DNA of 64,000 bases, taken from the NCBI GenBank assembly GCA_046290225.1, contig JBKAGE010000041.1, positions 32,001 to 96,000 on the forward strand, given 5' to 3'. Below, piece by piece: positions 25,632-47,285 of the stretch. A model generated the notes under the pieces. It ran no database searches and had not been told where the DNA came from. It saw only the letters and a list, made by a program, of their open reading frames with translations. Position 1 is the first letter of the stretch. Every line of letters starts with the position of its first letter. The translations under genes were made by a program, and so were the position numbers. This DNA comes from Bradymonadia bacterium. Its GTDB lineage: Bacteria; Myxococcota_A; Bradymonadia; UBA7976; UBA1532.

Positions 25632-27896
25632 TCAGCGGCAGAATTGCTGTGCGAGATCGTTGTTGGGCACGCAGCCCGAGACCCCGAAGATGCTGCAGCA
25701 GACGTTGTCGCCAGGGCAAACCTGGGCGTCGTTGCAGGACAGCACGCAAATCTGACCGGCCAGGAACACGTCCTGACACTCTTCGTCCGCCGTGCAGGCG
25801 TTCGGATCATCGCCACAGGCAGGCGGGCCGGCGTCGCCCCACTCGCTCATCATGCGATCCGCGCCGCCCACCTCGATGCACTCGCCGTCGATGCAGAGGT
25901 TGCCGTCACCGCAGTCGCCGTCGTCGAAACAGCCGACACATTCGCCGGTGTCCGGATCACAGACACCCTCGTCGCACTCTACGCCGGCACAGCGGCAGGC
26001 GTCGTCGCGACCGCATACCTGAACCCGCTGGCCATTGCGTTGGATCGGGGTGCAGTTCGAGCCGTCGGGGCAGACATCCTCGCCCTCGTCACAGGCCAGA
26101 CCACAGGCGCGGACCTCCTGGTTGAAGCCCAGGCGGTAGCGTACGCAGTACATGTTGTCGGGGCAGTCGGACTCGTCCTCACACGGGGCGCAGATGAGGG
26201 CCAGCGGATCGACACAGGCGTTGTCGCTGCACACCGTGCCGTCGGCGCAGTCGTCATTGCCCAGGCACTGCACGCACTCGCCAGAGGTGGGATCACAGAG
26301 TTGACCGTCGGCGCAGTCCACCGCCTCACAGGGGTCTTCGCAGACACCCGTCGCAGGATCACAGATACCCGAGGGGCATGCTTCGGGGTTGCACACCCCT
26401 GCGTCGCAGGTCTCACAGACACAGCCCGTGTTGCCCTCACAGAGGAGATCGCGGTTCTCGCCGATGACCTGCACTTCGCAGGTGGCCGGGTTGAAGCGGA
26501 AGGCTTCCCAGAGCTGACGCTCGACTCTGTTCGCCGAGTCGAGGACCTGAGGGCCGAAGTTCTGAGGCTCGGCATCGCCGCAGTTGAAGGTCAGCTGTGC
26601 TGCCCCCTGGGCGCGCTCGTCGCCCTGCGTGAACAGATCGACGCCCACCGTGTACCAGCCCGCCTCGGGCTCACCGAGACGGACCTGCTCTTCGAGGGGC
26701 AGGCGGCGTGGGCCGGCGTCACGGGTCAGGCCTGGGGTGCACCAGTCGGGGCTGCGGTTGTTGGCCCAGCAGTCGAAGGGGCTCTCGAAGTAGACGCCTT
26801 CGGGGTGGAGCACGTGTAGATCGAAGTCGAGGGTGTCGTCGCCCCAGGTGAGGGTGATCCAAGCCTGAGGGGTCAACTCGTCACAGGCGTCGCCGCGGCC
26901 GTCATCGTCGCTGTCGAGCTGGTCGAAGTTCGGTACGTCGCGGCAGTTGTCGCAGGCGTCACCGCGGCCGTCGTCGTCGACGTCGGACTGGCGGTTGGGC
27001 ACCTCGGGACAGTTGTCGGCGGCGTCGGGCACGCCGTCACCGTCGCGATCAGACTCCACGCAAGCGTCGCCGATGCCGTCGCCGTCGCTGTCTTCCTGAT
27101 CGGCGTTCACGTCGAGAGGACAGTTGTCGCAGGCATCGCCCACGCCATCTTCGTCGCCGTCGCCCTGGTTGCGGTTGGGCTCGAGGGGGCAGTTGTCGGC
27201 CATGTCGGGCACGCCATCGAGATCGATGTCGTTCTCGCCGATGGCGCAGGCGTCGCCTGTGCCGTCTCCAGCGTCGTCGGCCTGGTCCGGGTTGGCCACG
27301 TTGGGGCAGTTGTCGCAGGCGTCGCCCACACCATCGTCGTCGGCGTCGCGCTGGCTGTTGTTCGCCTGCTCGGGGCAGTTGTCCACCCCGTCGCGGATGC
27401 CGTCGTTGTCGGTGTCGGCTTCGGGATCACCACCACCTGCGCCGCCAACAGGCCCGCCACCGAAGCCGCCTTCACCGCCAACAGGCTCGCCGCCGAATCC
27501 GCCTTCGCCGCCAACAGGCTCGCCACCAAAGCCGCCCTCACCGCCGAAGCCACCTTCGCCGCCAACAGGCTCGCCGCCGAAGCCACCTTCACCACCGACG
27601 GGCTCGCCGCCGAAGCCGCCCTCACCACCGATGGGCTCACCGCCAAAGCCTCCGACAGGCTCACCACCAGCGCCAGCGACCGGGTCGCCACCCACAGGGG
27701 CACCACCGCCACCGGCTTCACCGCCGCGACCACCGGAGCCCATGCCCCCGCCGTCGACAGCAGCACCACCAGCGGCAGCGTCTTCACCCTCGGACTCGGC
27801 GACAGGATCAGACTCTTCGATACAGCCTGAGACCATCAGGGCCAGGGCCAACAGCACGCCGGCCTTTCGACCAGCGCCTTGCAGCTTCCATCGCAT
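25632..27896 (-). CDS. Lipoprotein with Gly-rich repeats, thrombospondin type-3 repeats, a beta domain and Cys-rich C-terminus
   Basis: Lipobox [15 protein letters not shown] repeats; DNCP...N..Q.D.D.DG.GDAC repeats; ITLTW...DFDLHVLHP. Confidence 0.9.
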
Positions 27897-28091
27897 GTAC
27901 AGCTCTCCGCTTCTTGAACCTGCCTTGCGCAGGTCGACGATTCTCCCGAGCATCCTCTCTGGCATACCGGCCAATCGAGTCCCGGATCAACTGCAGAGAC
28001 GTGGTGCTCGCTATGGTGCGTATGCATATGTGGAGATTTAAGCCGAACACCGCATGGGCAGATGCAGGTGTTTGGTACCAGAGGTACTCAA

Positions 28092-31142: not shown

Positions 31143-32456
31143 CTACTTGAGGCCGAAGCGCTCCATTTTGCTGATGAGCGTAGCCCGGTTGATGCCCAAC
31201 GCCCTCGCACATGCGCTTTGGTTGTTGTTCGCGCGAGCGAGGGCTTCGGTGATGAGACTGCGCTCGTAGATCTCTACCCGCGCTTTGAGCGTGAGCGGCT
31301 CGTCGGTTGTCCCAGAGCCGTCGAAGGGGTCCTCGTCGATGTACGTGCTCGGCGCGAGGGCTACCAATCGCTCGATCGTGTGTTGAAGCTCGCGCACGTT
31401 GCCAGGCCAGGGGGCGCCCACAAGCAGCTCAAGGACTCTGGGGCTCAATGTGATGGGGCCCAGCCCGAAGCGCTCGCCATAGATGCGGGCGAAGTGTCGG
31501 GCCAGGGGGCGGACGTCGGCGCGGCGATCCCGCAGCGGGGGGAGCCGGATCGCCACGACGTTGAGGCGGTAATAGAGATCGCGGCGGAAGGTGGACACTT
31601 GATCGAGAGGGCGCCCGCTCATGGCGATGATGCGCACGTCGATGGGCTCGGCCTGCTCCGAGCCCACGGGGCGGACCTCGCGCTCTTGCAGGACTCGGAG
31701 CACTGAGGCCTGAGCCCGAGGCGCCAGGCTGTCGACTTCGTCGAGCACCAGGGTGCCGCCGTGAGCAGCCCGAAACAGGCCCTTTCGACTGCCTGCTGCG
31801 CCTGTGAATGCGCCCTTTACGTAACCGAACAACTCCGCTTCGGCGAGCTCAGCGGGGAGCGCGGCGCAGTTGAAACAGATGTAGGGCCCCTCACGGCGGG
31901 CGGAACTCTCGAGGATGGCCCGGGCCACGCACTCCTTGCCCGTGCCTGTCTCGCCTTCGATCAACACGGTCACGTCGCGGCCGGCGATGCGTTGCACGCG
32001 CTCGGCCACATGCATCATCTCCTGCGACTCGAAGATCATCGTCTGGCCCAGAGACATGCGCGCTTTGAGCGCCTGGTTCTCTCGGGCGAGGCTGCCGGTG
32101 TGCAAGACACGGCGGGCGACGCGTTCGACCTCGTCGGCGTCGAAGGGCTTCTTGAAGTAGTCCATCGCCCCGCGCTTCATCGCCTCTACAGCGGTGCGTT
32201 CGGAGCCGTGGGCGGTGATCATCACGAAGGGTGGGCTGCTCGGCTTCCCTTTGAGCGCCTCGAGCAGCCCGAAGCCGTCGAGCTTGGGCATGCGCAGATC
32301 GCTGATGATCAGGTCGACGTGCTCGGTCTCGAGCATCTCGAGGGCTTCGGCGCCATGTCTGGCTTCGAGCACTGTGGCAGGGAGATCGGACAAGATGGTT
32401 TTGAGGGTGAAGCGGACCGCCGCTTCGTCATCGACCACCAGCACACGAGGTGTCAT
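31143..32456 (-). CDS. sigma54-dependent response regulator (NtrC family)
   Basis: Receiver domain, GETGTGKE, GAFTGA, WPGNVREL, Fis-type HTH. Confidence 0.95.
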   Translation of the reverse strand: MTPRVLVVDDEAAVRFTLKTILSDLPATVLEARHGAEALEMLETEHVDLIISDLRMPKLDGFGLLEALKGKPSSPPFVMITAHGSERTAVEAMKRGAMDYFKKPFDADEVERVARRVLHTGSLARENQALKARMSLGQTMIFESQEMMHVAERVQRIAGRDVTVLIEGETGTGKECVARAILESSARREGPYICFNCAALPAELAEAELFGYVKGAFTGAAGSRKGLFRAAHGGTLVLDEVDSLAPRAQASVLRVLQEREVRPVGSEQAEPIDVRIIAMSGRPLDQVSTFRRDLYYRLNVVAIRLPPLRDRRADVRPLARHFARIYGERFGLGPITLSPRVLELLVGAPWPGNVRELQHTIERLVALAPSTYIDEDPFDGSGTTDEPLTLKARVEIYERSLITEALARANNNQSACARALGINRATLISKMERFGLK

Positions 32457-33694
32457 GGCGTGTCTCCTGCCTTGGGAAGCGTGAGGGTGCTCACGGCGCC
32501 GCCCTCAGGGCGGTTCGCGAGCTCGAGGTTACCGCCGTGCTGCTGGGCCAGCGCCAGCGAGATGGAGAGCCCGAGGCCGCTGCCCTCGGGCTTGTCGGTG
32601 ACGCCCGCCGTGAAAAGGCGCTGGGGGTCGCCCTCGATGCCAGGGCCGTCGTCTTCCACCCGCATCTGAAGATGTGTGTGGCCATCAATGATGACGATGT
32701 CGATCGAGCGTGCGCCGGCTTGAAAGGCGTTGAGCACGAGGTTGCCCAGGATCTGCTTCACCTTTCGGGGGTCGGCTTGCACGGCCCCAGAGCCGGAATG
32801 TGTGAGCACGGCATCTTGGGCGGTGAGCATGGGGGCGTGGAGCAGCACGACCTCGCTGGCGAGCTGGGTCATGTCCACCCTGTGCAGGTTGAGATCGCTC
32901 AAGGGGCGGGCCACGTCGAGCAGGTGATCCATGATGCCGCCCATACGATGGATCTCACCCACCATCACCGTGAGCTGCTCGCTGAGGGCGGTGCCGGGCT
33001 CTGCCTTTCGGGCCATGTGAGTGGCGAGGCCTTGGATGGCCGCCAGCGGGTTCTTCAGCTCGTGGGCCAGGGCGCCGCTGATGGCCGTCAGCTCGCGGTT
33101 GCGCACACGGAGCCCCTCGGCGAGCTGGGCTTGAAGCTGGACCCCATACTCCTTGGAGGCCTCCAGAGCTGCTCGGGTGTTGGCAGTGATGGTGGCCATG
33201 GCGATGGCGAAGGCGATGAGCACATACGCCCAGATGAAGGGGCCCAGCTGCTTGCCCAGCTCGGTCGTGGAGTCGAGCATGCGTGGGACGTACCCCGGGA
33301 GGCGGGGCAACAGGATGGCCGCGATGATCACGAGGCAGCCGAAGCACACGCGGAGCACCATGGCTCGAGAGGGCCCGGAAACCAGTGCAGAGGCCGCCAT
33401 GGTCACCACCAGCACCGCGATGAAGGGACTCTCCAGGCCACCGGTGAGCAACGTCATCATCGATGGACCCACGACGATGGCGTTGAGTGGTAGAGCCGCA
33501 GGCAGCTGATGCATCTGCCTGTAGAGGAGCTGTGTCACTAAAAGTATCGTGAGCGCGACGAGCAGCGGTACCCATCGCCAGAAGGGTTCGCTCGTGTAGA
33601 TGAGCAGGCCGGCCATAGGGGCCACGGTGGCCAGCGCCACGAAGCGGGCGCGGCCGAGGATCATGTCCGGAGAGTTGTCTTGCATGCCCTGCAT
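32453..33694 (-). CDS. Multi-TM sensor histidine kinase
   Basis: Several TM helices; LAHELKNPL, NLVLNA, DDGPG, GSGLGL; ATGA overlap with the regulator. Confidence 0.93.
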   Translation of the reverse strand: MQGMQDNSPDMILGRARFVALATVAPMAGLLIYTSEPFWRWVPLLVALTILLVTQLLYRQMHQLPAALPLNAIVVGPSMMTLLTGGLESPFIAVLVVTMAASALVSGPSRAMVLRVCFGCLVIIAAILLPRLPGYVPRMLDSTTELGKQLGPFIWAYVLIAFAIAMATITANTRAALEASKEYGVQLQAQLAEGLRVRNRELTAISGALAHELKNPLAAIQGLATHMARKAEPGTALSEQLTVMVGEIHRMGGIMDHLLDVARPLSDLNLHRVDMTQLASEVVLLHAPMLTAQDAVLTHSGSGAVQADPRKVKQILGNLVLNAFQAGARSIDIVIIDGHTHLQMRVEDDGPGIEGDPQRLFTAGVTDKPEGSGLGLSISLALAQQHGGNLELANRPEGGAVSTLTLPKAGDTP

Positions 33695-34503: not shown

Positions 34504-36261
34504 TTAGAAGTAGAGTGTCTCGAGGACATCGCGCAGGAATCGGCGGCCGCGGCGCCCGGCGGCGCTGGGCGTGTCGAGATCTTCTTCGGGCAAATCCACC
34601 CCGGTGAAGGTGAGATCGCCCCGGCGAAACTCTCGGTGGAGCGCGCTCCCCCGGGCGTTCGAGAAAGCTGTGAGGTTGTTCCGTGTGGGCTTTAAGAAGT
34701 CCGAGAAACGATCTTGAAGCTGCCGCGAGAGCGCCACCCCACCCTCCGAGAGCTGCCCTTTGTCGTTCAACTGCAGTGGTCGTCGGGGTGTGAGCAGGAT
34801 GATCAGGGTGGCGTTCTGCTCCGACTCGCTCGTTGTGCTGAACAGGTATTGCAAGATGGGGATGTCCCTCAGGATGGGCACCCCGCTTCGGCTGTTGGAG
34901 CGGCGCTTGGTGTTGCCTGCCGCGAGGGCGATGGTCTGCCCGAAGGCCAGCTCCGCGGTGACCGAGGTGCGGTTCTTCACCGTGGCCACTGCCTGCTCGA
35001 AGGTCCCTGGGGCTGCGGTGGGTAAAAAGGCGCCAAACTCGGTGCGCACGCTGACGCGCAAGCGATCGTCTTCCAAGAAGGTGGGGCGGACGTTCAAGGT
35101 GATGCCCACCTCCTTGTTGTACGAGCTGCCCCCGAGCTGGCCTGGGGCGATGTAGGTCACCTCGCTGCCGATGAAGACCTCCGACTCTTCGTTGTCGTGG
35201 GCCACCACTGAGGGTCGGGCGACGATCTCGTTGTGACTGTCGCTGGCGTTGGCGATGTTCAGCGAATAGGTCACCTCGGGCATGCTGATGCTGACGCTGC
35301 TGGAGCCGCTCTCCTCGAAGGAGGTCACCGCACCTGTGGTGACGTCGCGGTTGGTGCTCCGGGAAGCGTCAAGCAGGGTGGAGCCAAATTGCACCTGCAG
35401 AGCCGACAACAGGTTCACGCCTCGCTGGCTGGAAGTAGAGTTCTCCTGTGACAACACCACGGCGTCGAAGACCACCATCTTTGCCGCTTCCGGTGTTTTG
35501 GGGTTCGAGTCCTCAGCGTGTGGTGACTCTTCTGTGTCCACAGGCACGGCGTGTGAGGTGGCCTGCATCGCCTCATGTACAGTACGCCAGGTGTGTAGTC
35601 GTTGGGCGAGTGCGCCTGGAGCTGCACCGCCAGTATTGCGATAGATCTTCAGGTGGTGCGCCGCGGCGTCGTGATCACCCATCGCTGCAGAGACCAGCCC
35701 ATGGGCGCGTTGGATCTGAGGCTCGGTCGATGCCGCGGGCGGCAGGCGCTCGAGGGCAACCTGAGCGGCTTTGGGATCGCCGGCATTGTAGGCGGCCACC
35801 ACCAGGCCGTAGAGCGGCTCTGGTCGCTCGGGAGCAGAGCGTGCGGCCTGAGCGAAGGCCTCACGGGCTTCAGGCCCACGCCGTTGCCTCCACAACAGGC
35901 GCCCCAGCCGATATGCCGCAGCCCAGTGGTGTGGGTTGAACCGCAGCGCCAGCCGATAGCCCACTTCGGCGAGAGATGCCGACTTCTGAGCGCCCGCCTC
36001 GGCCCGCAGGTCGTAGACATAGGCGTTGAAGAAGTGCAAGTGAGCGTCTTGCGGCGCGGCCTGTAACCCAGCGTTGAAGGCCACACTGGCTGCGTCGAGA
36101 TCCCCATCCCACAGCGCGCCCAGGCCATCGGCGAGGGCAGCGCGTGCCCCAGGGGCCGTCGGCGGTACGCGCTGCTGCAAATCGGATGGTAAACGCTCGA
36201 TGCCCTGAGCTGCGCAGCTCATCAGCCAGAGGGCGAGCGAGAACGTGAGTGTGTATCTCAT
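34504..36261 (-). CDS. Lipoprotein TPR::secretin fusion
   Basis: Lipobox LMSC; TPR-like helices; secretin core IVARPSVVAHDNEESEVFIG, EVGITLNVRP, GQTIAL, GVPILRDIPILQYLFS, LIILLTPR. Confidence 0.9.
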   Translation of the reverse strand: MRYTLTFSLALWLMSCAAQGIERLPSDLQQRVPPTAPGARAALADGLGALWDGDLDAASVAFNAGLQAAPQDAHLHFFNAYVYDLRAEAGAQKSASLAEVGYRLALRFNPHHWAAAYRLGRLLWRQRRGPEAREAFAQAARSAPERPEPLYGLVVAAYNAGDPKAAQVALERLPPAASTEPQIQRAHGLVSAAMGDHDAAAHHLKIYRNTGGAAPGALAQRLHTWRTVHEAMQATSHAVPVDTEESPHAEDSNPKTPEAAKMVVFDAVVLSQENSTSSQRGVNLLSALQVQFGSTLLDASRSTNRDVTTGAVTSFEESGSSSVSISMPEVTYSLNIANASDSHNEIVARPSVVAHDNEESEVFIGSEVTYIAPGQLGGSSYNKEVGITLNVRPTFLEDDRLRVSVRTEFGAFLPTAAPGTFEQAVATVKNRTSVTAELAFGQTIALAAGNTKRRSNSRSGVPILRDIPILQYLFSTTSESEQNATLIILLTPRRPLQLNDKGQLSEGGVALSRQLQDRFSDFLKPTRNNLTAFSNARGSALHREFRRGDLTFTGVDLPEEDLDTPSAAGRRGRRFLRDVLETLYF

Positions 36262-36302
36262 GTGCACACCTGTTGGATCGTTTTTTGATGTGTTTTTGGG
36301 GC

Positions 36303-39300
36303 TCAGTGTGATTCGTCCCAACAGATGTTTGTATTGCATGGCACCCCTTTGCCGGGTGTGCAACGCATACAGTCACACCTGCCGTCGATATAGTCTCGAG
36401 CACTGATGCGCTCTTCTGTGCCAAACACCTGAACACGGCTCAGGTTCAATGGCACTCTGCCCCTCTGGTAGATCCAGACGTATCGAGTTGAGGAGATTGA
36501 ACGGAAATACACGTTCTGAGAGAGATGGGCGAAGGGCTTGTCTTGGGGGCTGATGAGATCGAAGGCAGCCTCAGGCGTGGGTGCGCTGAGTTCTGTTGCA
36601 TCAGAAGGTACGAAGGTCTGGGTGTCAGGGTTGTCGAAGTCGGCTTCCCCCTCCTCGGGCTGGCTCACAGTGGCGAGTAGCTGTGCAGTACAGGCCCCTC
36701 GGGGTGCGATGACGTGATAGTTCCCGGCGCCGAGTTGATGGCGGCGCTGATACTTCATGTCATCGCCGAAATAGACATCGTCTTCGCTGAGCGCTGCTTT
36801 GAGGTCGTCCTGGGTCGACAGCACGACCAGGGCACCTTCGAGGCCACCATGGCGTTGCCCTGTGCCGCTGGCGTTCTGAATGACGACTGCGCTGACCTCA
36901 TAGGGTTTGCCGAGATCCACGCGCCACCAGGCGCCGTCTCGATCCGGGCGAAAACCTACCTCTGGGCACTCGGCGAAGCGTTGGGTGGATTGTATACCAC
37001 CGCTGCTGCGAGTCTTATTGCGGATATAGGGGGTGGCGAGGATGAGATCCTGGCGCTCGCGACCGCCCCACTCCACGTGTGAGCCCTTGCAGCTGATGGG
37101 TTGGTTGGGGTTGCTCTCAAGGCGAGTGGGCGCGCTGGGTCCAGTTTTGAGTCGCCGTGCGCTCTTGAACCAGCTCGATACTTCATCGACCACCTTGTGT
37201 AAGAGTTTGGCGGGCTTATTGGGATCTGCGTAGAACATGCCCGAGGTCGTACCTGTCGGGAACTTGTCTTTGATGTCACTGAAAGGCTTGATCGCGTCTT
37301 TGGCCACGGCGCCGAAGACCTTGTTGTCGTACACCATGGAGTATCCGGTGTGCTTGAGCGCGCCGTGTACCTGGCTGCGGACGCCCTCAGGGTTGAGGTT
37401 GCCGAGGCTGGTCGAGCCATAGGACTTGAGCAGCTGTTCACGCACCTTGGGGAAATAACCACCAAGGCCCTTGGCCATATCGTGGGCGAGCTCTGCGCTG
37501 CTGGCGGCTACACCGAAGGCCACTTCTGCGCCTTCGGCGAAGGCCTCGACGATCGGCCCAAGGGGCCCCAGGCAGTCGAGTGTACTATTTGCATTCCACG
37601 AAACATTAAGGCCACTGCTCAGGTTGAGCGAGTTGGCCCTAAAGCGGACCCCGATCGGGCGGTAGGGGCAGTTGGCGTCGAGCCTGAAGTCGATGTGGCG
37701 CTTGCTGAGCTCGATCTCCACGTCCTCTTCGAAACTGATCGGAGGGATGCTCACCTCGGCCTTGATCGCCATCTTGCCTTGGGTGCTGTTGCCTTTCTTC
37801 ACCGTGGACACCAGCAGCACGCCAGCAGCGTCGAGGTAGTCGGACCACCCGCTCAGGTCCACGTCGGCGTAGATCCCCCGGGCCTGACGACCCTTCTTCT
37901 TCTGCCCTGAGTGCCCCGTCTGCCAGTACTCCACCGTGAGATCGCCCACCGTCTTGCCGAGCACCACCCCAGTGCCGCGGGCCATCACACGCTTGCCTTT
38001 GACGCACTTGTTTGCGCTCTCTCGCACAGCCTTGGATGCCAGGATTTGCTGGTTCTTGCCGATGAAGAACCCCATCATCTGGCTCAGATCAGGGCGACCC
38101 GCCACGTCGAGGTTGGCCTCCGAGTCATAGCTCAGACCTTTCACAGAGACCGCATCCAGCGGCACATTGTTGAAGACGCCCGTCATGTCTTCGAATGTCG
38201 CGCCCAGCACGGCGCGGCCGATGACCTGAACGAGCCGGCGGTAGTCGTCGAGGCTGACCTCGGCGGCGTTGAAGGCGAAGGCGTTGTCCACCTTGCACGT
38301 CTTCAGGGTGCACTGCGCGTAGAGAAAGTAGTCCTTCGACTCGCCCTGGTACGTGACGGTGGTCTTCCTGGCCCAGGCCTTTAACACCTTCTTGACGCCC
38401 CGTGCCCCACCCTGAGTGCTGCGGATCTCCACCACAGGCTCGGTCATGGTCAGGCCGTCGATGGTGAAGATGTTGCTCCACCGCTGACGGCTCAGCCGCA
38501 CCCACCACGTCTTCCGCGGCCTGGGGTTGCAGTCATCTGCTGCGGCCTTGCCATGAGCGGCGTGCACGCGCACGCCGCAGTCTCCATTGCAGAATCCGAT
38601 GCTCGTGAGGGCGCTCCTCAGATCGCCAGCGCCCAGAGACACGCGGCCGAAGACGTTCTGGCCGCCGACCATGGCGAGGGTTTGGCGCGTGTCCACTTGC
38701 TGGATGCGGGTCCGGATGGGAGTGGGGAGCCCGCTCATGGCGACGGCGCTGTGGGCGTTGTCGAAGGGCACCCACAGGAACACCGTGTGCTGCACCTTCA
38801 CGTCTCCGAGCTCGTTGAGGTAGGGCACCTCGGTGAGCAGGGTAGACAAGTCGAACTTCGCATCCTGAGGCAGCAAGGCGATGTTGGGCTGGTTCTTCTT
38901 TTGGCCGTCGAGCGTGGGCCAGTAGAGGACGAGCTGGAAGTTGGCGCCGAGCAGCCTGAGGTTCTTCTGGTACCACGTCACCCCAGCCTCAGTGCGCTTG
39001 TCCAGCGTGGCGTCGGCGAGATTGTCGAGGGCGTTGTGGACCAACCCTTGATTGTTCGAGCCCACAGCTTGGCGGGCCTGTGACACGATCTGCTTGTCCG
39101 GGTTGTTGCCAGTCGCTGGGGGATTGCCGCCCACAGGAGGGCTAGGTTGGCCCACTGAGGGGCTGCCGCCACCGTCGCCTGTAGGGAAGATGACCCCGGT
39201 GAGCGTCAGCCAGGAGGCCACCGTGCCGCCCTCGGCGAAGCTCAGCTGCCCATTGCCCTTGAGCTCGAGCCGGGCAGACTTGCTGTCGCTGTGGCTGCTG

Positions 39301-41078
39301 AAAGTGTGGGCGCTCGCGGGCCCGCTGCCGCGGGGCAAGGTGAGGAAGGTTGCTCTAGGCGCGTTGGTGATGAGGCCGGTGAGTACGGTGAAGGGCCCAA
39401 CGTTGGTGGCTCGGGGCGGGCCAAAGCCGTCCGAGCCATAGGGGACAGCGCCGTTGAGGGCCATGGCGCTGCCTTTCCCCGTGGGGAACGCGATGCCCGC
39501 GAGGCTGATCCAGCCGCCGTGGTCGGGGGTGTGGAGGAAGACCTCACCGTTGGGCTGGATGTCCACTCGGCCTTGTCCATTTTGGATGGCCACCTGAAAC
39601 ATCAGCCGCTCTGCGGGGCGCAAATGGTTGGGCAGAGTGGTGATACGGCCGCGACCGCGTCGGCCACGTACCATGCCGGACAGCACCACTAGATTACGGT
39701 GTTTGTACGCGCGCAAGTCTCCGTAATTCTGGCCGAAGTGGCTGAACCCGGAGGCTGGGGTCAAGCGCTCGGCGTCACGCGTGGAAAAGGTGAGCCCGTC
39801 GAAGCTGATCCGGCCTCGGGTAATGGGGTAGTCCTCACGAGCGACGATGTGTCCGTTGGGTCGTATCTCGAGCTGCACGATGTCAGCGCCTTGGGGCCGG
39901 CTGAAGATCTGTTTCTTGAGCGGACGCATCCCGAGGGGTAGCTGCGCGATGGCGCTCAGGCGTGTTGTACGGGTCATGCCGTGGAGCACGACGATCGGTG
40001 GATCGGCCGTGGCCGAAGGGGTCCCGTAGGGGCGCCCCCATCTTTTGTCCCCGTACAACAGCTCCAGTGGTTTGGTGCCTTCGACCACTGGGGCCTCACC
40101 GCCGGGCAGGAGCACGAGGCCAGAGACGGTGAGCCACGAACCCTCGACGCCACCCTCGGAGAACTGCAGGCCACCCTCAGTAAATAGGTCGAGGCGGGCT
40201 GTTCGATCGCCGCTGTAGCCGTTGAGAATTCGCATACTGGCGGTGCGCAGCTCTCTGGGCAGCGTGAAGAGCGTCTCTTCGGAGTTGGCGTTGGTCACCA
40301 TGCCCGTCAGCACGGCGAAGGGCCCTGCCATGAACACTCGAGGTGGGCCGAAGCCGACGTTACGGTACGGATTTACACCAGGCCCAAGGGGCAGCAACTT
40401 GCCCTGCTTCGTGGGGAACACCACCCCTGACAAGTTGACGCGCCCGCCGTGATCGGCGGTGTGCAAGTGCACCTCGCCGTTGATCTCCACATGCACCCGG
40501 AGCGGGCCATCGACGCCAGCAACCTGGAACATCAGGCGTTCTTTGGGTCGCAACTGAGCCGGCAGTGTCGTGATTCGGCCGCGGCCAGCAGGCGCGTGGA
40601 CCAAGCCCATCAGCACCACGAGGTCTCGATGTTTGTAGGCTCTCAGATCGCCATAGCCGTTCTCCCAATTGCGAAAGCCAGAGCCCAACGAGAGGCGCTC
40701 GGCCTCTCTCGTGGAGAAGGTGATCCCATCGAGGCTGACCCAGTTGCCCAAGGGGGCGCCGCCATCCTTCACCTTGATGTAGCCGGCGTTGTCCACGGCG
40801 ATCTGGAGGGTGCCCTCGCCTTTGTTCTGGCTGAAGACAAGCGTGCGCGAAGGGCGCATGTTTCGAGGCAGGCGGGCGATTTTTCCGCGTTTGGTGGTGT
40901 GCACCACCCCATGCAGCACCACGATGGGATCATCGCGGGTCGCTGCAGGGGTGGCGTAGGGGCTGCCCCAGGCTCGAGCGCCGTTGAGCAGCTCCAGTGG
41001 CGTGGTCGTGTGGGCGTGCGCTTTGACGCCCCACAACACCCAAAATATAACAACGAGATGACGAAGGCCGGTGTGCAC
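36303..41078 (-). CDS. 1591-aa secreted protein: six phage RBP-head-like repeats, central domain, C-terminal fucolectin/discoidin-like domain
   Basis: Signal peptide (..VKAHA); six ~100-aa repeats with V.L.G..I..LP...RP....F...G...W.SL.G..F; WWRVDLGKPYEVSAVVIQN..RYVWI..LNLSRVQVFG. Confidence 0.85.
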   Translation of the reverse strand: MHTGLRHLVVIFWVLWGVKAHAHTTTPLELLNGARAWGSPYATPAATRDDPIVVLHGVVHTTKRGKIARLPRNMRPSRTLVFSQNKGEGTLQIAVDNAGYIKVKDGGAPLGNWVSLDGITFSTREAERLSLGSGFRNWENGYGDLRAYKHRDLVVLMGLVHAPAGRGRITTLPAQLRPKERLMFQVAGVDGPLRVHVEINGEVHLHTADHGGRVNLSGVVFPTKQGKLLPLGPGVNPYRNVGFGPPRVFMAGPFAVLTGMVTNANSEETLFTLPRELRTASMRILNGYSGDRTARLDLFTEGGLQFSEGGVEGSWLTVSGLVLLPGGEAPVVEGTKPLELLYGDKRWGRPYGTPSATADPPIVVLHGMTRTTRLSAIAQLPLGMRPLKKQIFSRPQGADIVQLEIRPNGHIVAREDYPITRGRISFDGLTFSTRDAERLTPASGFSHFGQNYGDLRAYKHRNLVVLSGMVRGRRGRGRITTLPNHLRPAERLMFQVAIQNGQGRVDIQPNGEVFLHTPDHGGWISLAGIAFPTGKGSAMALNGAVPYGSDGFGPPRATNVGPFTVLTGLITNAPRATFLTLPRGSGPASAHTFSSHSDSKSARLELKGNGQLSFAEGGTVASWLTLTGVIFPTGDGGGSPSVGQPSPPVGGNPPATGNNPDKQIVSQARQAVGSNNQGLVHNALDNLADATLDKRTEAGVTWYQKNLRLLGANFQLVLYWPTLDGQKKNQPNIALLPQDAKFDLSTLLTEVPYLNELGDVKVQHTVFLWVPFDNAHSAVAMSGLPTPIRTRIQQVDTRQTLAMVGGQNVFGRVSLGAGDLRSALTSIGFCNGDCGVRVHAAHGKAAADDCNPRPRKTWWVRLSRQRWSNIFTIDGLTMTEPVVEIRSTQGGARGVKKVLKAWARKTTVTYQGESKDYFLYAQCTLKTCKVDNAFAFNAAEVSLDDYRRLVQVIGRAVLGATFEDMTGVFNNVPLDAVSVKGLSYDSEANLDVAGRPDLSQMMGFFIGKNQQILASKAVRESANKCVKGKRVMARGTGVVLGKTVGDLTVEYWQTGHSGQKKKGRQARGIYADVDLSGWSDYLDAAGVLLVSTVKKGNSTQGKMAIKAEVSIPPISFEEDVEIELSKRHIDFRLDANCPYRPIGVRFRANSLNLSSGLNVSWNANSTLDCLGPLGPIVEAFAEGAEVAFGVAASSAELAHDMAKGLGGYFPKVREQLLKSYGSTSLGNLNPEGVRSQVHGALKHTGYSMVYDNKVFGAVAKDAIKPFSDIKDKFPTGTTSGMFYADPNKPAKLLHKVVDEVSSWFKSARRLKTGPSAPTRLESNPNQPISCKGSHVEWGGRERQDLILATPYIRNKTRSSGGIQSTQRFAECPEVGFRPDRDGAWWRVDLGKPYEVSAVVIQNASGTGQRHGGLEGALVVLSTQDDLKAALSEDDVYFGDDMKYQRRHQLGAGNYHVIAPRGACTAQLLATVSQPEEGEADFDNPDTQTFVPSDATELSAPTPEAAFDLISPQDKPFAHLSQNVYFRSISSTRYVWIYQRGRVPLNLSRVQVFGTEERISARDYIDGRCDCMRCTPGKGVPCNTNICWDESH

Positions 41079-41114
41079 GTGCTTCCCTCCTGCGATGTGC
41101 AGAGGGGCGGTTCA

Positions 41115-41208
41115 GCACAGGCTATACCAGCTGAGAATCGGCCTTAAATCGGGCGCTGTCGGTGAAATGTGTTGGCTTGCTCGACAGGGCCTGTCGAAGA
41201 ATTCGACA
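41115..41208 (-). promoter_or_regulatory. sigma54-type promoter with tandem upstream activator-like palindromes
   Basis: Minus strand TGGTATAGCCTGTGC (41129-41115; GG-10 nt-GC); TGTTG-N7-CGACA (41170-41186) and TGTCG-N7-CGACA (41192-41208). Confidence 0.65.
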
Positions 41209-41236: not shown

Positions 41237-43408
41237 TCAGAAGTCGGGGGCCTGAGTGATCTGGCGATGCAGCGCCGGGGTCATCTCTGCCCGCTGATGA
41301 TTCGTCGGTAGGCGGATGGGCAGCTCAAGGCGGAACATCGCCCCGTGGCCCGGGCCGTCGGAGTGGGCCGTGAGCGTACCTTCCATCGACTGCGCGTCGA
41401 GGGCGCTGGCGTGCAAGCCGAAGCCCGTACCATCCGACTTCGTGGTGAAGCCGTACGCGAAGATGCGGGTGAGGTTCTCTTCGGAGATGCCCACCCCCGA
41501 GTCTTTGATCTCGAAGGCGCAGCGGTCGTCTCCGACGCGCTCAAGCGAGATCGTGAGCAGGTGCTCACCCTCCACCTCTCGCATGGCCTGGATGGCGTTG
41601 CGGACGAGGTTGATCAAGATCTGCAGCACCTTGTCCCGTTCGACGAGAATCTCGGGGATATGGGTCACGTTCAGGTCGAGCTTGACCCCGTGGCGCTCCA
41701 TGCTCGAGCGGTTGATCTGCAGGGCGTCTTCGAGCAGCTCGGCCAGGTTGGCCGCCACCATCACCCCGCCCACGCGAGCGTAGGCCCGCTGCATGCCCAC
41801 CACGTGCTTGATGTGATCCACGTCTTTTGACAGGCGCTGCAGCTCTTCGATGAGCGTGGCCTGATCCTGGGTCAGACGCTCGCCGATCTTGCTGAGGTAT
41901 TCGATCAGCTGTGGGCCCTTGCCGCCCACATCGCCGAGCTGGCCGTTGAGCATCTGCGCGGCCTTGGCGATGCCCTCGACTTTGAGCTTTTGCACCTTCT
42001 CGATGGCCACGGTTGCCGAGACATTGACGCTGTTGAGCACATTACCCACGTTGTGGAGCACTTGGGCGGCCACTTCGGATTTACCGGCGCTCCGCGAGGC
42101 CTCGATGAGGCGAGCCTGGGTCTCTTCCAAAGCCTTGGCGGCATCGCGCTCGGCCTGGATGTCGGCCACGGAGCCTGCCATGCGCACCGGGTGTCCCTTC
42201 TCGGACCAGGTGGCCTGCCCTCGAATTCGGAACCAGCGCCAGCTGTCGTCGGGCATCTGGAACCGGAACTCATAGGCGCAGGGGGTGCGATGGAACATGT
42301 GACTGTTGAAGACCTTCATGAAGGGCTTGCGATCTTCGGGGTGCATGTGACCCAGGATCCAGTCCACGTCGGGCGTCACCTGCGACGGATCGAGATCGAA
42401 CATGTCGTAGATGCGGGGGGCCAAGTAGAGCTCGGGCGGCACCATGCCGAACTCCAGTGACCAGATGCCTTCACCGGAGCCTTCGATGGCCAGCTGGAAC
42501 CTCGCCTGGCTGCGGCGCAGTTCATAGGTTCGGGCCCGCACGCGCTGCTCCAGCTCGTCGCGACTGCGGGCCAGGGCCACCTCGGCCTCGCGCTGGTGGG
42601 TGCAGTCTTCCACGAGAGAGAGCAAGAAGGTGGTGCCAGGCCCTCGATCGGCCATCAGGGTGGAGTTGTGCCATCGGCAATGAATTACCGCACCGTCGCG
42701 GGTGTAGTTGCGGTTCTCTACCACTCGGCTCTGCTCAGTGCCCTCCATGAGTCCCTGAAGCTCTCCCCACACACGGGCTTCGTCTTCAGGATGCACCAGG
42801 CCTAAATCTGCAGGGGTGCGACCGAGGGCTTCGCTCGTCTGCCACCCGAAGATGGCCTGAGCGCGCCCTGACCAGCGAACCACCCGCAGCTCTCGATCCC
42901 ACTCGATGACACCGATGGGGCTGTTGTCCATGTGCTGGCGGAGCAGCGTATAGGTGCTGTGCAGCTCGGTGCCCTGCCGGTGTCGCTCGGTGACGTCGTT
43001 GCCATGGGGCACGAGGCAGATCACGTTGCCCGCCTCGTCGAAGTAGGGGAGCACCGAGAAGTCGACGATGAGTGTGTCGCCTTCGGGGCTGCGGATGTCG
43101 ACCTCGAAGCCTACACGCTCACCCTGGGCCGCCCGCTGAACGGCATAGCGAATGCGTTTGCGGATCGCCTTGCTGTGGCTCCACCAGGGCGCATGCCAGA
43201 GAGGGGCGCCGGTGATCGTGGCTTTGGGGATGTCGGTGAAGCGCACCGTGTAGTCATTGCACTCGATGACCCGGCCGTCCGGCGTGAGCAGTCCGGCGAA
43301 GCCCGCCAGAGCGTTCATGTAGCGCCGCAAGATCTGCAACGTCGAGGCGTCGGGGATCTCGCCGGGCTCGAACCCTTTGTCGCTCACCTCTTGGCCCATT
43401 TGAGTCAC
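41237..43408 (-). CDS. Cytoplasmic three-PAS histidine kinase
   Basis: PAS/PAC motifs (VHPED, MHPEDR, WRWFRIRG); VLHNVGNVLNS H-box; DSGVG, FTTK, GTGFGLH. Confidence 0.93.
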   Translation of the reverse strand: MTQMGQEVSDKGFEPGEIPDASTLQILRRYMNALAGFAGLLTPDGRVIECNDYTVRFTDIPKATITGAPLWHAPWWSHSKAIRKRIRYAVQRAAQGERVGFEVDIRSPEGDTLIVDFSVLPYFDEAGNVICLVPHGNDVTERHRQGTELHSTYTLLRQHMDNSPIGVIEWDRELRVVRWSGRAQAIFGWQTSEALGRTPADLGLVHPEDEARVWGELQGLMEGTEQSRVVENRNYTRDGAVIHCRWHNSTLMADRGPGTTFLLSLVEDCTHQREAEVALARSRDELEQRVRARTYELRRSQARFQLAIEGSGEGIWSLEFGMVPPELYLAPRIYDMFDLDPSQVTPDVDWILGHMHPEDRKPFMKVFNSHMFHRTPCAYEFRFQMPDDSWRWFRIRGQATWSEKGHPVRMAGSVADIQAERDAAKALEETQARLIEASRSAGKSEVAAQVLHNVGNVLNSVNVSATVAIEKVQKLKVEGIAKAAQMLNGQLGDVGGKGPQLIEYLSKIGERLTQDQATLIEELQRLSKDVDHIKHVVGMQRAYARVGGVMVAANLAELLEDALQINRSSMERHGVKLDLNVTHIPEILVERDKVLQILINLVRNAIQAMREVEGEHLLTISLERVGDDRCAFEIKDSGVGISEENLTRIFAYGFTTKSDGTGFGLHASALDAQSMEGTLTAHSDGPGHGAMFRLELPIRLPTNHQRAEMTPALHRQITQAPDF

Positions 43409-43566
43409 TCCTCGGCTCAGCTCTGCGCGGTCTCTGCGTTGATGTCTTCACATCGGCACGAGGGCGGGCGAGTCACCAGGGTGGGTGAAGGCGGGTCAGC
43501 GCTGACCCACCTCAACCTGATCCGGCCACTCTGCCGAAAGAACTGAGACAGACGATGGAGGCTCAC

Positions 43567-44139
43567 ATGGCCGAGAACCGGGACGATCGCCCGCACATCT
43601 TGATTGTCGACGACGAAGACAGCGTGCGCTCTGCGCTGCGCCGGACCCTGCGCAAGGAGGGCTACCGCCTCAGCTTCGCCTCATCGGCTCAGGAGGGCCT
43701 CGATCTCATGCGTCGAGATCGGCCCGATGTGCTGGTCACTGACCATCTGATGCCTCAGATGACTGGCCTCGAGCTGGTGAAGAAATGCAGCCTGCTCTAC
43801 CCGCACATGTCACGCATCGTGCTCACGGGTCAGGCGGAGATCGAGACGGTGGTGTCGGCCATCAACGAGGGCCACGTCTACCGATTCCTGTGCAAGCCCT
43901 GGGACGACGACGAGCTCAAGCTCACGCTGTTCCTCGCGGTGGATCGCGTACAGCTCGAGCGGGAGACCGCACGGCTCAAGATCACCGTGGCTCAGCAGAC
44001 ACGACGCATCAAAGAGTTGGAAGCCACCCTCGCTCGCCTGGGTGGAACCGCCGGATCCACGGATGGGTCCAAGAATGGTCCAATGAGGGACGATCATGGC
44101 GCGATCATCATCAGCGACGAAGACCTCGCGGGGCTCTGA
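43567..44139 (+). CDS. Response regulator (receiver + coiled coil)
   Basis: ILIVDDE, TDHLMP, LTG, KPWDD; GGAGG SD. Confidence 0.92.
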   Translation: MAENRDDRPHILIVDDEDSVRSALRRTLRKEGYRLSFASSAQEGLDLMRRDRPDVLVTDHLMPQMTGLELVKKCSLLYPHMSRIVLTGQAEIETVVSAINEGHVYRFLCKPWDDDELKLTLFLAVDRVQLERETARLKITVAQQTRRIKELEATLARLGGTAGSTDGSKNGPMRDDHGAIIISDEDLAGL

Positions 44140-45769
44140 GTCCAAAAAAGTGCACCCCCTCTGGCCGGTGCCCTCGACCCCGGAGCTTGGCCGCGACTGG
44201 CGCCCTCGCATTCTGGTGGTCGACGACGAGCCCCCGATTTGCCGGGCCCTGCGCCGTTTTCTGCGCATGGACGGCTTCGAGGTGCTCGAAGCGCACTCTG
44301 GCCGGGCGGCCCTCAAGCTCCTCGCGGAGCACGAGGAAGAGGTGCAGGTGATCATCTCTGATCTGAACATGCCCGGGGGCATGGACGGGATCGAGTTCCT
44401 GCGCACGGTGCGGGACGAGTACCCCCGCGCCCGACGCATTCTGCTCACCGCCTTCGGTGATCTGAATCTGATGGAGCGGGCCATCAACGAGTCCGGGGTG
44501 CATCGGTTCATGCCCAAGCCCTGGGACTCAGAGGTCATGCGCACCACGATCAAAGAGAGCGTGGAGCAGTGGCAGGCCCTGAACGAGCGTGAGGAGATGG
44601 CGGCCCTCGTGAAGCGCCAACGTGACGCCCTGGAGGGTCTCACCGAGGAGCTCAAGGAGCAGGTCTCCCGACGGACCGAGCTGTTGGAGAACGTCACCCG
44701 TCGCTGGCGGCAGACCCTCGACAGCATCAACGATCCGCTCACGCTCATCGATCGCGACTACCGCATCCAGCGGGCGAACAAAGCAGCGGCCCGATGGGCC
44801 GGCGCCGACATCCGGGCCCTCAACGGTCAGAAGTGCCACCGCGTGCTCTTCGGTCACGAGAGCCCCTGCTCGGGCTGCCCGATGGGCCGCACCGACGAGG
44901 CGCTGCGCGACGCCGAGGAGGCGGTGGAGATCGCCGACGCCCGCACAGGGCAGCTCTGGGCGGTGAGCAGCTGGCCCCTCGACGCGGAGATGGACTCGGA
45001 GATGGGGCAGTACGTCTGCCACTACCGCGACATCACGGCCTCGAAGGCCCTGGAGCGCCGGGTCATCATGTCCGAGAAGATGGCCGCTGTGGGCGAGCTG
45101 TCAGGGTGTGTGGCCCACGAGCTGAACAACCCGCTGACCGGCATCTTGTCGTTCAGCCAGATTCTCGGTCGCAAGGTCCGTGACGACGACAAGCTCGCCG
45201 GCATGACCCGCGACATCGAAGAGCAAGCCCGGCGATGCAAACACATCGTGCAGAGCCTGCTCGACTTTGCCCGGCCTGGGGCGACCCCGGCCTCGAAGAG
45301 CGCCATCGATCTGCACGATCTCATCGAGAACTGTGCCTACATGGCGAACCTGAAAGGCGGGGTGGTCTTCAACTTCGAAGGCCCAGAAGACCTCTGGCCG
45401 GTCTGGGGCAACAGCGACAGCTTGAAGTCGGTGTTCCTCAACCTGTTCAACAACGCAGTGCATGCCATGGAAGGCGCCGGAAAAGTCCAGGGACAGATAC
45501 GGGTGGTGGCCGACAACCACAGCGCCCGCCCTGGAGAAGGCCGCACAGTACATCTGCGGGTCATGGACGACGGACCCGGGATCCCGACGACGCTTCGGGA
45601 GCAGGTGTTTGCGCCGTTCTTCACCACCAAGGCGGAGAACAAGAGTGGGACGGGCCTCGGCTTGTCCATCGTGAAGAACGTCATAGAAGATCACGGCGGA
45701 TCGGTGAACCTGATCGACGGGCCCTCCGGGGGGGCCTGCTTCGACATCAAGTTGCCCACCCGCACGTAG
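44096..45769 (+). CDS. Hybrid receiver-PAS-histidine kinase (start uncertain; GTG 44150 possible)
   Basis: LVVDDE receiver; CHRVLFG..PCSGCP PAS; VAHELNNPL; FFTTK..GTGLGL. Confidence 0.9.
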   Translation: MARSSSATKTSRGSESKKVHPLWPVPSTPELGRDWRPRILVVDDEPPICRALRRFLRMDGFEVLEAHSGRAALKLLAEHEEEVQVIISDLNMPGGMDGIEFLRTVRDEYPRARRILLTAFGDLNLMERAINESGVHRFMPKPWDSEVMRTTIKESVEQWQALNEREEMAALVKRQRDALEGLTEELKEQVSRRTELLENVTRRWRQTLDSINDPLTLIDRDYRIQRANKAAARWAGADIRALNGQKCHRVLFGHESPCSGCPMGRTDEALRDAEEAVEIADARTGQLWAVSSWPLDAEMDSEMGQYVCHYRDITASKALERRVIMSEKMAAVGELSGCVAHELNNPLTGILSFSQILGRKVRDDDKLAGMTRDIEEQARRCKHIVQSLLDFARPGATPASKSAIDLHDLIENCAYMANLKGGVVFNFEGPEDLWPVWGNSDSLKSVFLNLFNNAVHAMEGAGKVQGQIRVVADNHSARPGEGRTVHLRVMDDGPGIPTTLREQVFAPFFTTKAENKSGTGLGLSIVKNVIEDHGGSVNLIDGPSGGACFDIKLPTRT

Positions 45770-45827
45770 CCGAACCATGCAGCCTGTGGGGGCCACTGGC
45801 CCCGAGTCGGGAGAACGAGGAGACGTC

Positions 45828-47285
<1,458 letters not shown>

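Follow-up and report, generated by a model that had tools for sequence, protein, structure and literature searches.

Of the factors that decide which bacteria fall prey to a given phage, its receptor-binding heads are the best studied. Siphophage receptor-binding proteins (RBPs) are all homotrimers, and their heads, β-barrels of 7–9 strands that recognise cell-wall saccharides, resemble the heads of reovirus and adenovirus without sequence similarity (PMC7291167, in the portion of the source available). In the accessible part of another report, the fibre head was presented as a common fold for receptor recognition by various viruses (bioRxiv 10.1101/2023.01.23.525297). Here, we describe a gene of a Bradymonadia bacterium whose product carries units resembling these heads. 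The window, that is, the whole stretch of DNA analysed, comprises 64,000 nucleotides (nt) of contig JBKAGE010000041.1 (positions 32,001 to 96,000), and the gene is a single open frame of 1591 codons on its minus strand (36303..41078), encoding a protein of 1591 amino acids (aa). It is likely that the N-terminal ~610 residues of this protein form two RBP-head triads, each composed of units A, B, and C and each a single-chain pseudo-trimer that probably binds cell-surface glycans, and that the whole is an exported multivalent glycan-binding protein.

The siphophage RBP heads (PSA gp15, p2, bIL170, and TP901-1; PF08931) have the same β-barrel as the modelled unit (Z 14.4–9.5, root-mean-square deviation [rmsd] 1.6–2.6 Å over 89–95 residues), are linked to the target units by sequence profiles, and likewise provide three heads per module. 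In these phages, the heads belong to three separate identical chains (PMC7291167, same portion), whereas the target has three diverged units in one chain. The siphophage head is C-terminal, after a shoulder and a neck; in contrast, the target units are N-terminal (27–635 of 1591) in a chromosomal gene product and do not hold the position of a head in a virion. The minor tail proteins of phages Truong and Pumpernickel also have three tandem units on one chain, but there a single C-terminal triad ends a virion protein, whereas the target is an exported cellular protein with both of its triads at the N-terminus, and the identity is 20–23%. We found no description of the Truong and Pumpernickel triads in the literature, and neither has a solved structure. 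The fibre heads of adenovirus, reovirus sigma1, virophage Zav_19, and marseillevirus NMV_189 share the general fold much more weakly (Z 8.4–5.0). The nearest described cellular analogue is the mosaic adhesive trimer (MAT) fibre of Bdellovibrio, a group of signal-peptide-bearing cellular proteins that reuse phage-like adhesin parts and lectin-type tips for the recognition of other cells (PMC10769870, in part). Unlike the proposed triads, MAT fibres are homotrimers along their whole length; their tip folds are S74, TNF-like, and C-type lectin, and an RBP-head triad is not described in the accessible part of that source (PMC10769870). The element studied here thus combines a known viral head fold with an arrangement not described before, three units on one chain, which is widespread in secreted bacterial proteins.

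Six head-like units and the rule of three

Residues 27–635 consist of six homologous units of ~100 aa in the order ABC-ABC, following a signal-like N-terminus. Self-alignment of residues 27–328 with 337–635 gave 51% identity (E 1.6e-95), and a register shifted by one unit (32–226 against 443–636) still aligned with 29% identity (E 1.2e-14); therefore, all six units are homologous. The identities were highest between units of the same position (A1/A2 46%, B1/B2 61%, C1/C2 44%), whereas all other pairs were at 20–33%. On the basis of the repeat alignments, the unit identities, and the triad model, the first triad was divided into A1 (residues 27–127; 40698..41000), B1 (128–227; 40398..40697), and C1 (228–327; 40098..40397), and the second triad, beyond a 9-aa linker (328–336; 40071..40097), into A2 (337–437; 39768..40070), B2 (438–537; 39468..39767), and C2 (538–635; 39174..39467), all on the minus strand. 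An earlier note, made from the letters of the sequence, had described six repeats with a duplicated three-domain unit at 39170..41010, which corresponds to residues 24–636; all the motifs that it quoted are present in the translation, and the duplication is far beyond chance.

For structural comparison, an AlphaFold2 model of the triad was aligned by VIA-align with 48,161 PDB representatives, and the best structural matches fell on unit B1 (model residues 102–202). The highest-ranking rows were Listeria phage PSA gp15 (6r5w_A; Z 14.4, rmsd 1.6 Å over 95 residues), the tail needle of Pseudomonas phage Pa223 (Z 12.9, 1.9 Å over 96 residues), the bIL170 head (2fsd_B; Z 11.0, 2.6 Å over 95 residues), the p2 RBP (2wzp_A; Z 9.9, 2.4 Å over 92 residues), and the TP901-1 RBP (3da0/2f0c/4ios; Z 9.5–9.7, 2.2–2.4 Å over 89–90 residues). 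These phage heads stood well over unrelated rows (Z about 4–5), and the fibre heads of virophage, adenovirus, and reovirus came next below them. BFVD yielded 33 matches with E ≤ 0.001; most of these were tail or RBP proteins of phages, with a coverage of about 100 residues. At the sequence level, no Pfam or NCBIfam model matched the N-terminal 640 residues, and single units matched PHROGs families of minor tail proteins with E values down to 1.1e-9, in every case at the very C-terminus of the profile, as in phrog_3639 (positions 388–453 of 474; E 1.1e-9), phrog_13362 (758–818 of 820), and phrog_13022 (835–930 of 933). As modelled, then, the unit superposes on the solved siphophage RBP heads as a β-barrel of the head fold. 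The likeness to phage RBP heads that the earlier note had pointed out was borne out by the PHROGs matches, by PF08931 in some homologs, and by the structural scores (Z 14.4–9.5). The structure search that it had suggested, in which a non-phage fold would have spoken against the idea, placed solved phage heads first.

The triad model was built from an alignment of triad 1, triad 2, the triad of a paralog, and 42 short relatives. Its mean predicted local distance difference test (pLDDT) was 94.2, and its predicted template modelling score (pTM) was 0.92 over 313 residues; the only low-confidence stretch was the inter-triad linker (residues 306–309 with pLDDT < 50, last blocks averaging 63 and 42). 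A pTM of 0.92 over three domains indicates a fixed mutual arrangement.

A HMMER scan of 1.84 billion representatives gave 591 related clusters at 50% identity, including 264 at E ≤ 1e-10. Units were counted with a purpose-built single-unit hidden Markov model in the representatives of the 150 best of the 591 clusters, one being the target's own record. The number of units was a multiple of three in 136 of these 150 (3 units in 92, 6 in 22, 9 in 4, 12 in 2, 15 in 9, and 27 in 4, with further cases of 18, 24, and 33), and at least five of the 14 exceptions were records cut inside a unit. More than three units were present in 53 proteins, and in 44 of these the number was a multiple of three (binomial P = 1.3e-13 at p = 1/3, the representatives not being fully independent), as it was in 163 of 208 contiguous arrays. 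Linkers, where present, sit between triads; P0007 is composed of six arrays of three. This protein (3265 aa) has six neat triads joined by linkers of about 45 aa, and giant relatives of 4000–6500 aa with 27–33 units were also observed (P0004, P0005, P0006, P0008, and P0009), the arrays of P0004 holding 3, 3, 3, 9, and 15 units.

The internal order of the arrays showed the same period. In long arrays, identity peaked at unit distances of 3, 6, 9, and 12 (0.35, 0.33, 0.33, and 0.32 vs 0.27–0.30), and for 490 of 729 units, the best match in another protein occupied the same position. In a carefully built tree, which covered 39 units of 10 proteins, the target's first and fourth units were sisters (99/89), as were the second and fifth (100/99); C2 grouped exclusively with position-3 units (100/98), and another clade comprised nothing but position-1 units (97/91). 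The tree also indicated an independent duplication of a whole triad in P0024. Since units come in threes and whole triads have been duplicated, the module is the triad and not the unit, and the strongest independent evidence for this, judged from sequence, is the rule of three. Two alignment columns are Cys in 66–68% of family units, with both Cys present in 478 of 729; this pair probably forms a disulfide.

Central module, C-terminal domain, and proposed function

Downstream of the triads, a Gly/Pro-rich linker (residues 636–665; 39084..39173) leads to a central β-rich module of ~450 aa (about residues 695–1150; 37629..38996), both on the minus strand. The module was modelled with moderate confidence (pLDDT mostly 70–90) from an alignment of 10 sequences. 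It is common to nine members of the family, P0041 (E 6.8e-104), P0030, P0026, P0058, P0098, P0024, P0127, P0061, and P0070, and always lies downstream of N-terminal triads. Foldseek gave no credible match for it, VIA gave only porin/Tom40-type barrels at rmsd 7–23 Å, and in the ESM Atlas, scores did not exceed 0.83 and no families were returned. This lack of matches is no evidence of a new fold. The following region (residues 1151–1378; 36945..37628, minus strand) is partly helical in the model and of low confidence (model residues 487–715, pLDDT < 50).

The C-terminal domain (about residues 1380–1558; 36405..36944, minus strand) appears, in a model of moderate confidence, to be a galactose-binding-domain-like β-sandwich of the F-type-lectin/CBM32 type. 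It matched fucolectin (3cqo_A) with Z 8.6 and rmsd 2.5 Å over 99 residues at 26% identity; further VIA matches were CBM62 (Z 8.2), 1k12 (7.6), and many CBM32 entries (6–6.5), and Foldseek gave probability 1.00 for 2j22, 3lek, and 3lei, with SpX-3 and the lectin domain of lectinolysin among these matches. F-type lectins and CBM32 domains (FBP32, eel agglutinin, S. pneumoniae SpX-3, and lectinolysin) thus share its fold (Z 8.6–7.5) and the WWRVDL core motif. The target domain differs from them in being split by a long insert, in having Ala for an Arg of FBP32, and in remaining below the Pfam cut-offs (PF22633, 24.4 vs 27.8 bits; PF00754, 19.3 vs 28.2 bits), ~30 residues (1381–1409) being matched. 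The lectin-like C-terminus proposed by the earlier note therefore agrees with the fold matches and with weak sequence matches. The protein ends in a Cys-rich tail of low pLDDT, followed by the stop codon (residues 1559–1591; 36303..36404, minus strand).

Because homotrimeric phage heads bind cell-wall saccharides, the triads are, by analogy, putative carbohydrate-binding modules. In the 25 homologs scanned, triads are combined with ricin-B, tectonin, F5/8-C, laminin-G, pentraxin, EGF, and lipase modules, the company typical of secreted carbohydrate-binding proteins. Two N-terminal triads together with a C-terminal F-type-lectin/CBM32-like domain would give multivalent glycan binding, and the most probable role of the whole protein is that of an adhesin or targeting protein that is exported and binds glycans multivalently.

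Whether the protein is an adhesin only or a lectin-guided effector depends on the role of the central module. If this module were an effector, for example a membrane-active one, aimed by the triads and the C-terminal domain, the protein would be a lectin-guided toxin (chimerolectin), a possibility that we consider unlikely. The architecture would suit it: lectin-like modules flank a conserved β-rich module of ~450 aa with long strands, the C-terminal lectin is exchanged in relatives that retain the central module (ricin-B in P0024), and one of the structural matches of the C-terminal domain is the lectin domain of a lectin-bearing cytolysin, lectinolysin. However, no toxin or pore-former matched the central module, its superpositions on porin/Tom40-type barrels are not credible, and its moderately confident model comes from few sequences.

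Assembly of the triads

Three observations suggest a closed pseudo-threefold packing that copies the phage homotrimer: the units are packed in a fixed way in the model, they come in threes, and their solved relatives are homotrimers. In such an arrangement, three diverged units of one chain would pack into a compact body imitating the three-chain head of the phage, and since A, B, and C have diverged, the three faces between the units would have ceased to be identical. The compact monomer model and the rule of three together argue that one chain supplies all three heads.

The protein could instead be a homotrimer of parallel chains whose stacked A-A-A, B-B-B, and C-C-C layers form six trimeric heads, as in a tandem-knob phage fibre; we regard this as quite improbable. 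Tail proteins are usually trimeric, and gp98 of phage Pumpernickel, a tail protein, ends in three units. Each solved relative of the unit is a homotrimer, too (PMC7291167, in the portion available). Stacked layers, however, give no reason for multiples of three in 136 of 150 proteins and 163 of 208 arrays, which is a strong argument against them. In addition, a single chain folds into a confident compact body by itself (pTM 0.92), and many relatives place the triad directly after the signal peptide, followed by ricin-B, tectonin, or lipase modules.

Independent domains on a string, or a rigid open rod, in which ABC-ABC is merely the trace of a segmental duplication, are very improbable. Bacterial surface proteins often contain β-sandwich domains in tandem, and successive units are separated by a median gap of only 2 residues. 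Yet a pTM of 0.92 over three units is atypical of flexibly linked domains, the linkers lie between and not within triads (P0007; target residues 328–336), unit numbers follow the rule of three, and whole triads have been duplicated repeatedly. Beads on a string, which the earlier note had named as an outcome that would count against its proposal, are thus not what was modelled, and the unit counts in threes across the family agree with this.

Several observations weigh against the single-chain, glycan-binding interpretation. Fold and packing both rest on AlphaFold2 models; the pTM of 0.92 indicates fixed packing and not symmetry, and the sole structural match to a full triad, that of phage Truong (TMq 0.84), is itself a prediction. 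PSA gp15 and the p2 RBP ranked first in the Foldseek search of PDB, yet no match reached E ≤ 0.001. PF08931 (Caudo_bapla_RBP; cut-off 26.7 bits) gave no row for the target even at E ≤ 1; it was listed in 6 of the 25 homologs scanned and reached its cut-off in three (P0010, 41.8 bits; P0021, 29.0 bits; P0004, 26.7 bits), these scores being sums over repeats in which no single stretch passes by itself. The search query was a triad, and the 150 best representatives are accordingly biased toward three or more units, a bias that cannot favour 6, 9, or 15 over 4, 5, or 7. The positional signal over the whole family is weak, although non-random (56 label changes vs 66.9 with shuffled labels; 0 of 200 shuffles as low). 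The Cys pair of the family is missing from all six target units (39174..41000, minus strand), in which hydrophobic or small residues stand instead, and the signal-like N-terminus was judged by eye. The collagen-like segment that precedes the C-terminal triad of the paralog must trimerise, which is a mild point for three chains. In the C-terminal domain, alignment of the target '..VIQNASG' with FBP32 '..ITNRGD' places Ala at the Arg of 'NR', which we take to bind fucose; the fucose-binding residues of F-type lectins are His/Arg/Arg, and this was the single motif position aligned.

The locus, phage carriers, and the family

The start of the gene was read directly from the sequence: a Shine-Dalgarno GGAGGG (41085..41090, minus strand) lies 6 nt before the GTG start at 41078. 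The translated residues 1–23 (41010..41078, minus strand) resemble a signal peptide: they begin with basic residues, continue into a hydrophobic core of 11 residues, and have A-H-A preceding residue 24. In close relatives, classic signal peptides stand directly ahead of an N-terminal triad. The Sec export proposed in the earlier note is supported by this N-terminus and its Shine-Dalgarno site. One public record (1577 aa) begins 14 codons downstream of the GTG, leaving out 41037..41078 (minus strand) and with it the signal-like N-terminus; a second record has the 1591-aa form. A σ54-type promoter candidate, TGGTATAGCCTGTGCT at 41114–41129 (minus strand), was rejected, as it has 3 mismatches to the consensus and the window holds 223 such matches vs 290 expected by chance; scans for σ70 promoters and terminators gave matches at chance level only.

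Directly downstream lies a gene for a TPR and secretin protein of 619 aa (34504..36363, minus strand; PF00263 Secretin, E 1.2e-26; TPR_19 and TPR_16), whose longest open reading frame (ORF) overlaps the 3' end of the target by about 60 nt. Because of this overlap, the two genes are probably co-transcribed. The secretin may be a dedicated exit through the outer membrane for the large target protein, which it would possibly carry across.

The neighbourhood comprises a his operon, Cys/Met metabolism genes, PAS kinases, NtrC-type activators, the secretin gene, and a gene for a thrombospondin type 3 repeat protein. The last is a 780-aa ORF (25632..27974, minus strand; PF02412, E 2.2e-34), likely a secreted calcium-binding repeat protein. 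Two-component genes flank the target on both sides (31143..33694, minus strand, and 41237..47285) and include two NtrC-type σ54 activators. No phage structural Pfam family was found in 34 neighbouring ORFs between 12 and 62 kb of the window. On this sequence context, the locus is chromosomal and not of a phage, in keeping with the cellular protein that the earlier note had proposed. That the gene is a structural tail-fibre gene of a prophage, tailocin, or contractile injection system is scarcely credible: the solved and annotated relatives of the domain are phage tail or RBP proteins, but the N-terminus is signal-peptide-like, none of those neighbours matches a phage structural family, the triads are N-terminal whereas PHROG families carry the unit at the C-terminal end, and the composition is even across the window.

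The whole genome holds three triads. The third lies at the C-terminus of the paralog, a protein of at least 803 aa encoded on contig 39 (L003 1486..3897, minus strand). Its upstream parts are a collagen-like Gly-X-Y region matching models of the Scl/Lcl collagen-like adhesins and then Cys-rich acidic repeats, which gave a weak TIGR02232 match under its cut-off. The collagen segment, which must trimerise, would display three triads per fibre. A single-protein scan of a collection of genome contigs confirmed no relative.

The triad distribution appears patchy. Among 40 related genomes, a triad was found in one, in a non-orthologous protein of 2057 aa; in a sample of the phylum, 9 of 301 genomes (the target's own included) had a match, with only six candidates scored per genome. 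The triad of the 2057-aa protein (L009 18..10425, plus strand; G023 contig 84) is C-terminal, with no obvious signal peptide, and its gene follows a DUF6603 gene and a gene for a 703-aa protein without a Pfam match, an architecture and context unlike those of the target. Word-index searches returned the target's own record and one protein for the repeats and its own record for the C-terminal part, which reflects a limit of the tool, as HMMER finds many relatives. The family is without a name in public records (one 'hypothetical protein', the rest unnamed), and in the ESM Atlas it falls into uncharacterised clusters from mixed, poorly known taxa. No description of a single-chain RBP-head triad was found in full-text literature searches, most subscription journals being outside their scope; a 'pseudo-trimeric' passage in the accessible part of PMC13252515 concerns a different protein.

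In phages, the minor tail protein of the Microbacterium phage Truong matched the whole triad in its BFVD model (TMq 0.84, rmsd 2.9 Å, E 7.8e-18), and gp98 of the Microbacterium phage Pumpernickel (488 aa; L004 3566..5032, plus strand) ends in three units (146–253, 266–369, and 378–487). A tblastn search of 50,697 phage records at E 1e-3 found one phage, Pumpernickel, in two records; triads close in sequence to those of the target thus appear to be rare in isolated phages. Because phage tail proteins also carry single-chain triads, the direction from phage to cell is not established, and domestication from a phage is possible.

Taken together, these lines allow a more comprehensive reading, which we hold tentatively as a serious possibility falling a little short of probable. 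The triad would be a natural single-chain fibre-head trimer whose clefts are free to diverge in specificity; it would define an unnamed secreted 'poly-triad' lectin family with up to 11 triads per protein, pass between phage tail and cellular proteins, and, in this bacterium, arm a secretin-exported protein that recognises other cells. If true, the finding would illustrate a route from an obligate homotrimer to a monomeric module with three faces free to diverge, and it would offer a monomeric scaffold for engineered binders for which trimerisation is unnecessary. The rule of three provides a simple sequence-level signature for annotating the family. Again if true, the finding would expose a large unannotated secreted family (591 clusters), some members with 33 units, that likely reads cell-surface sugars.

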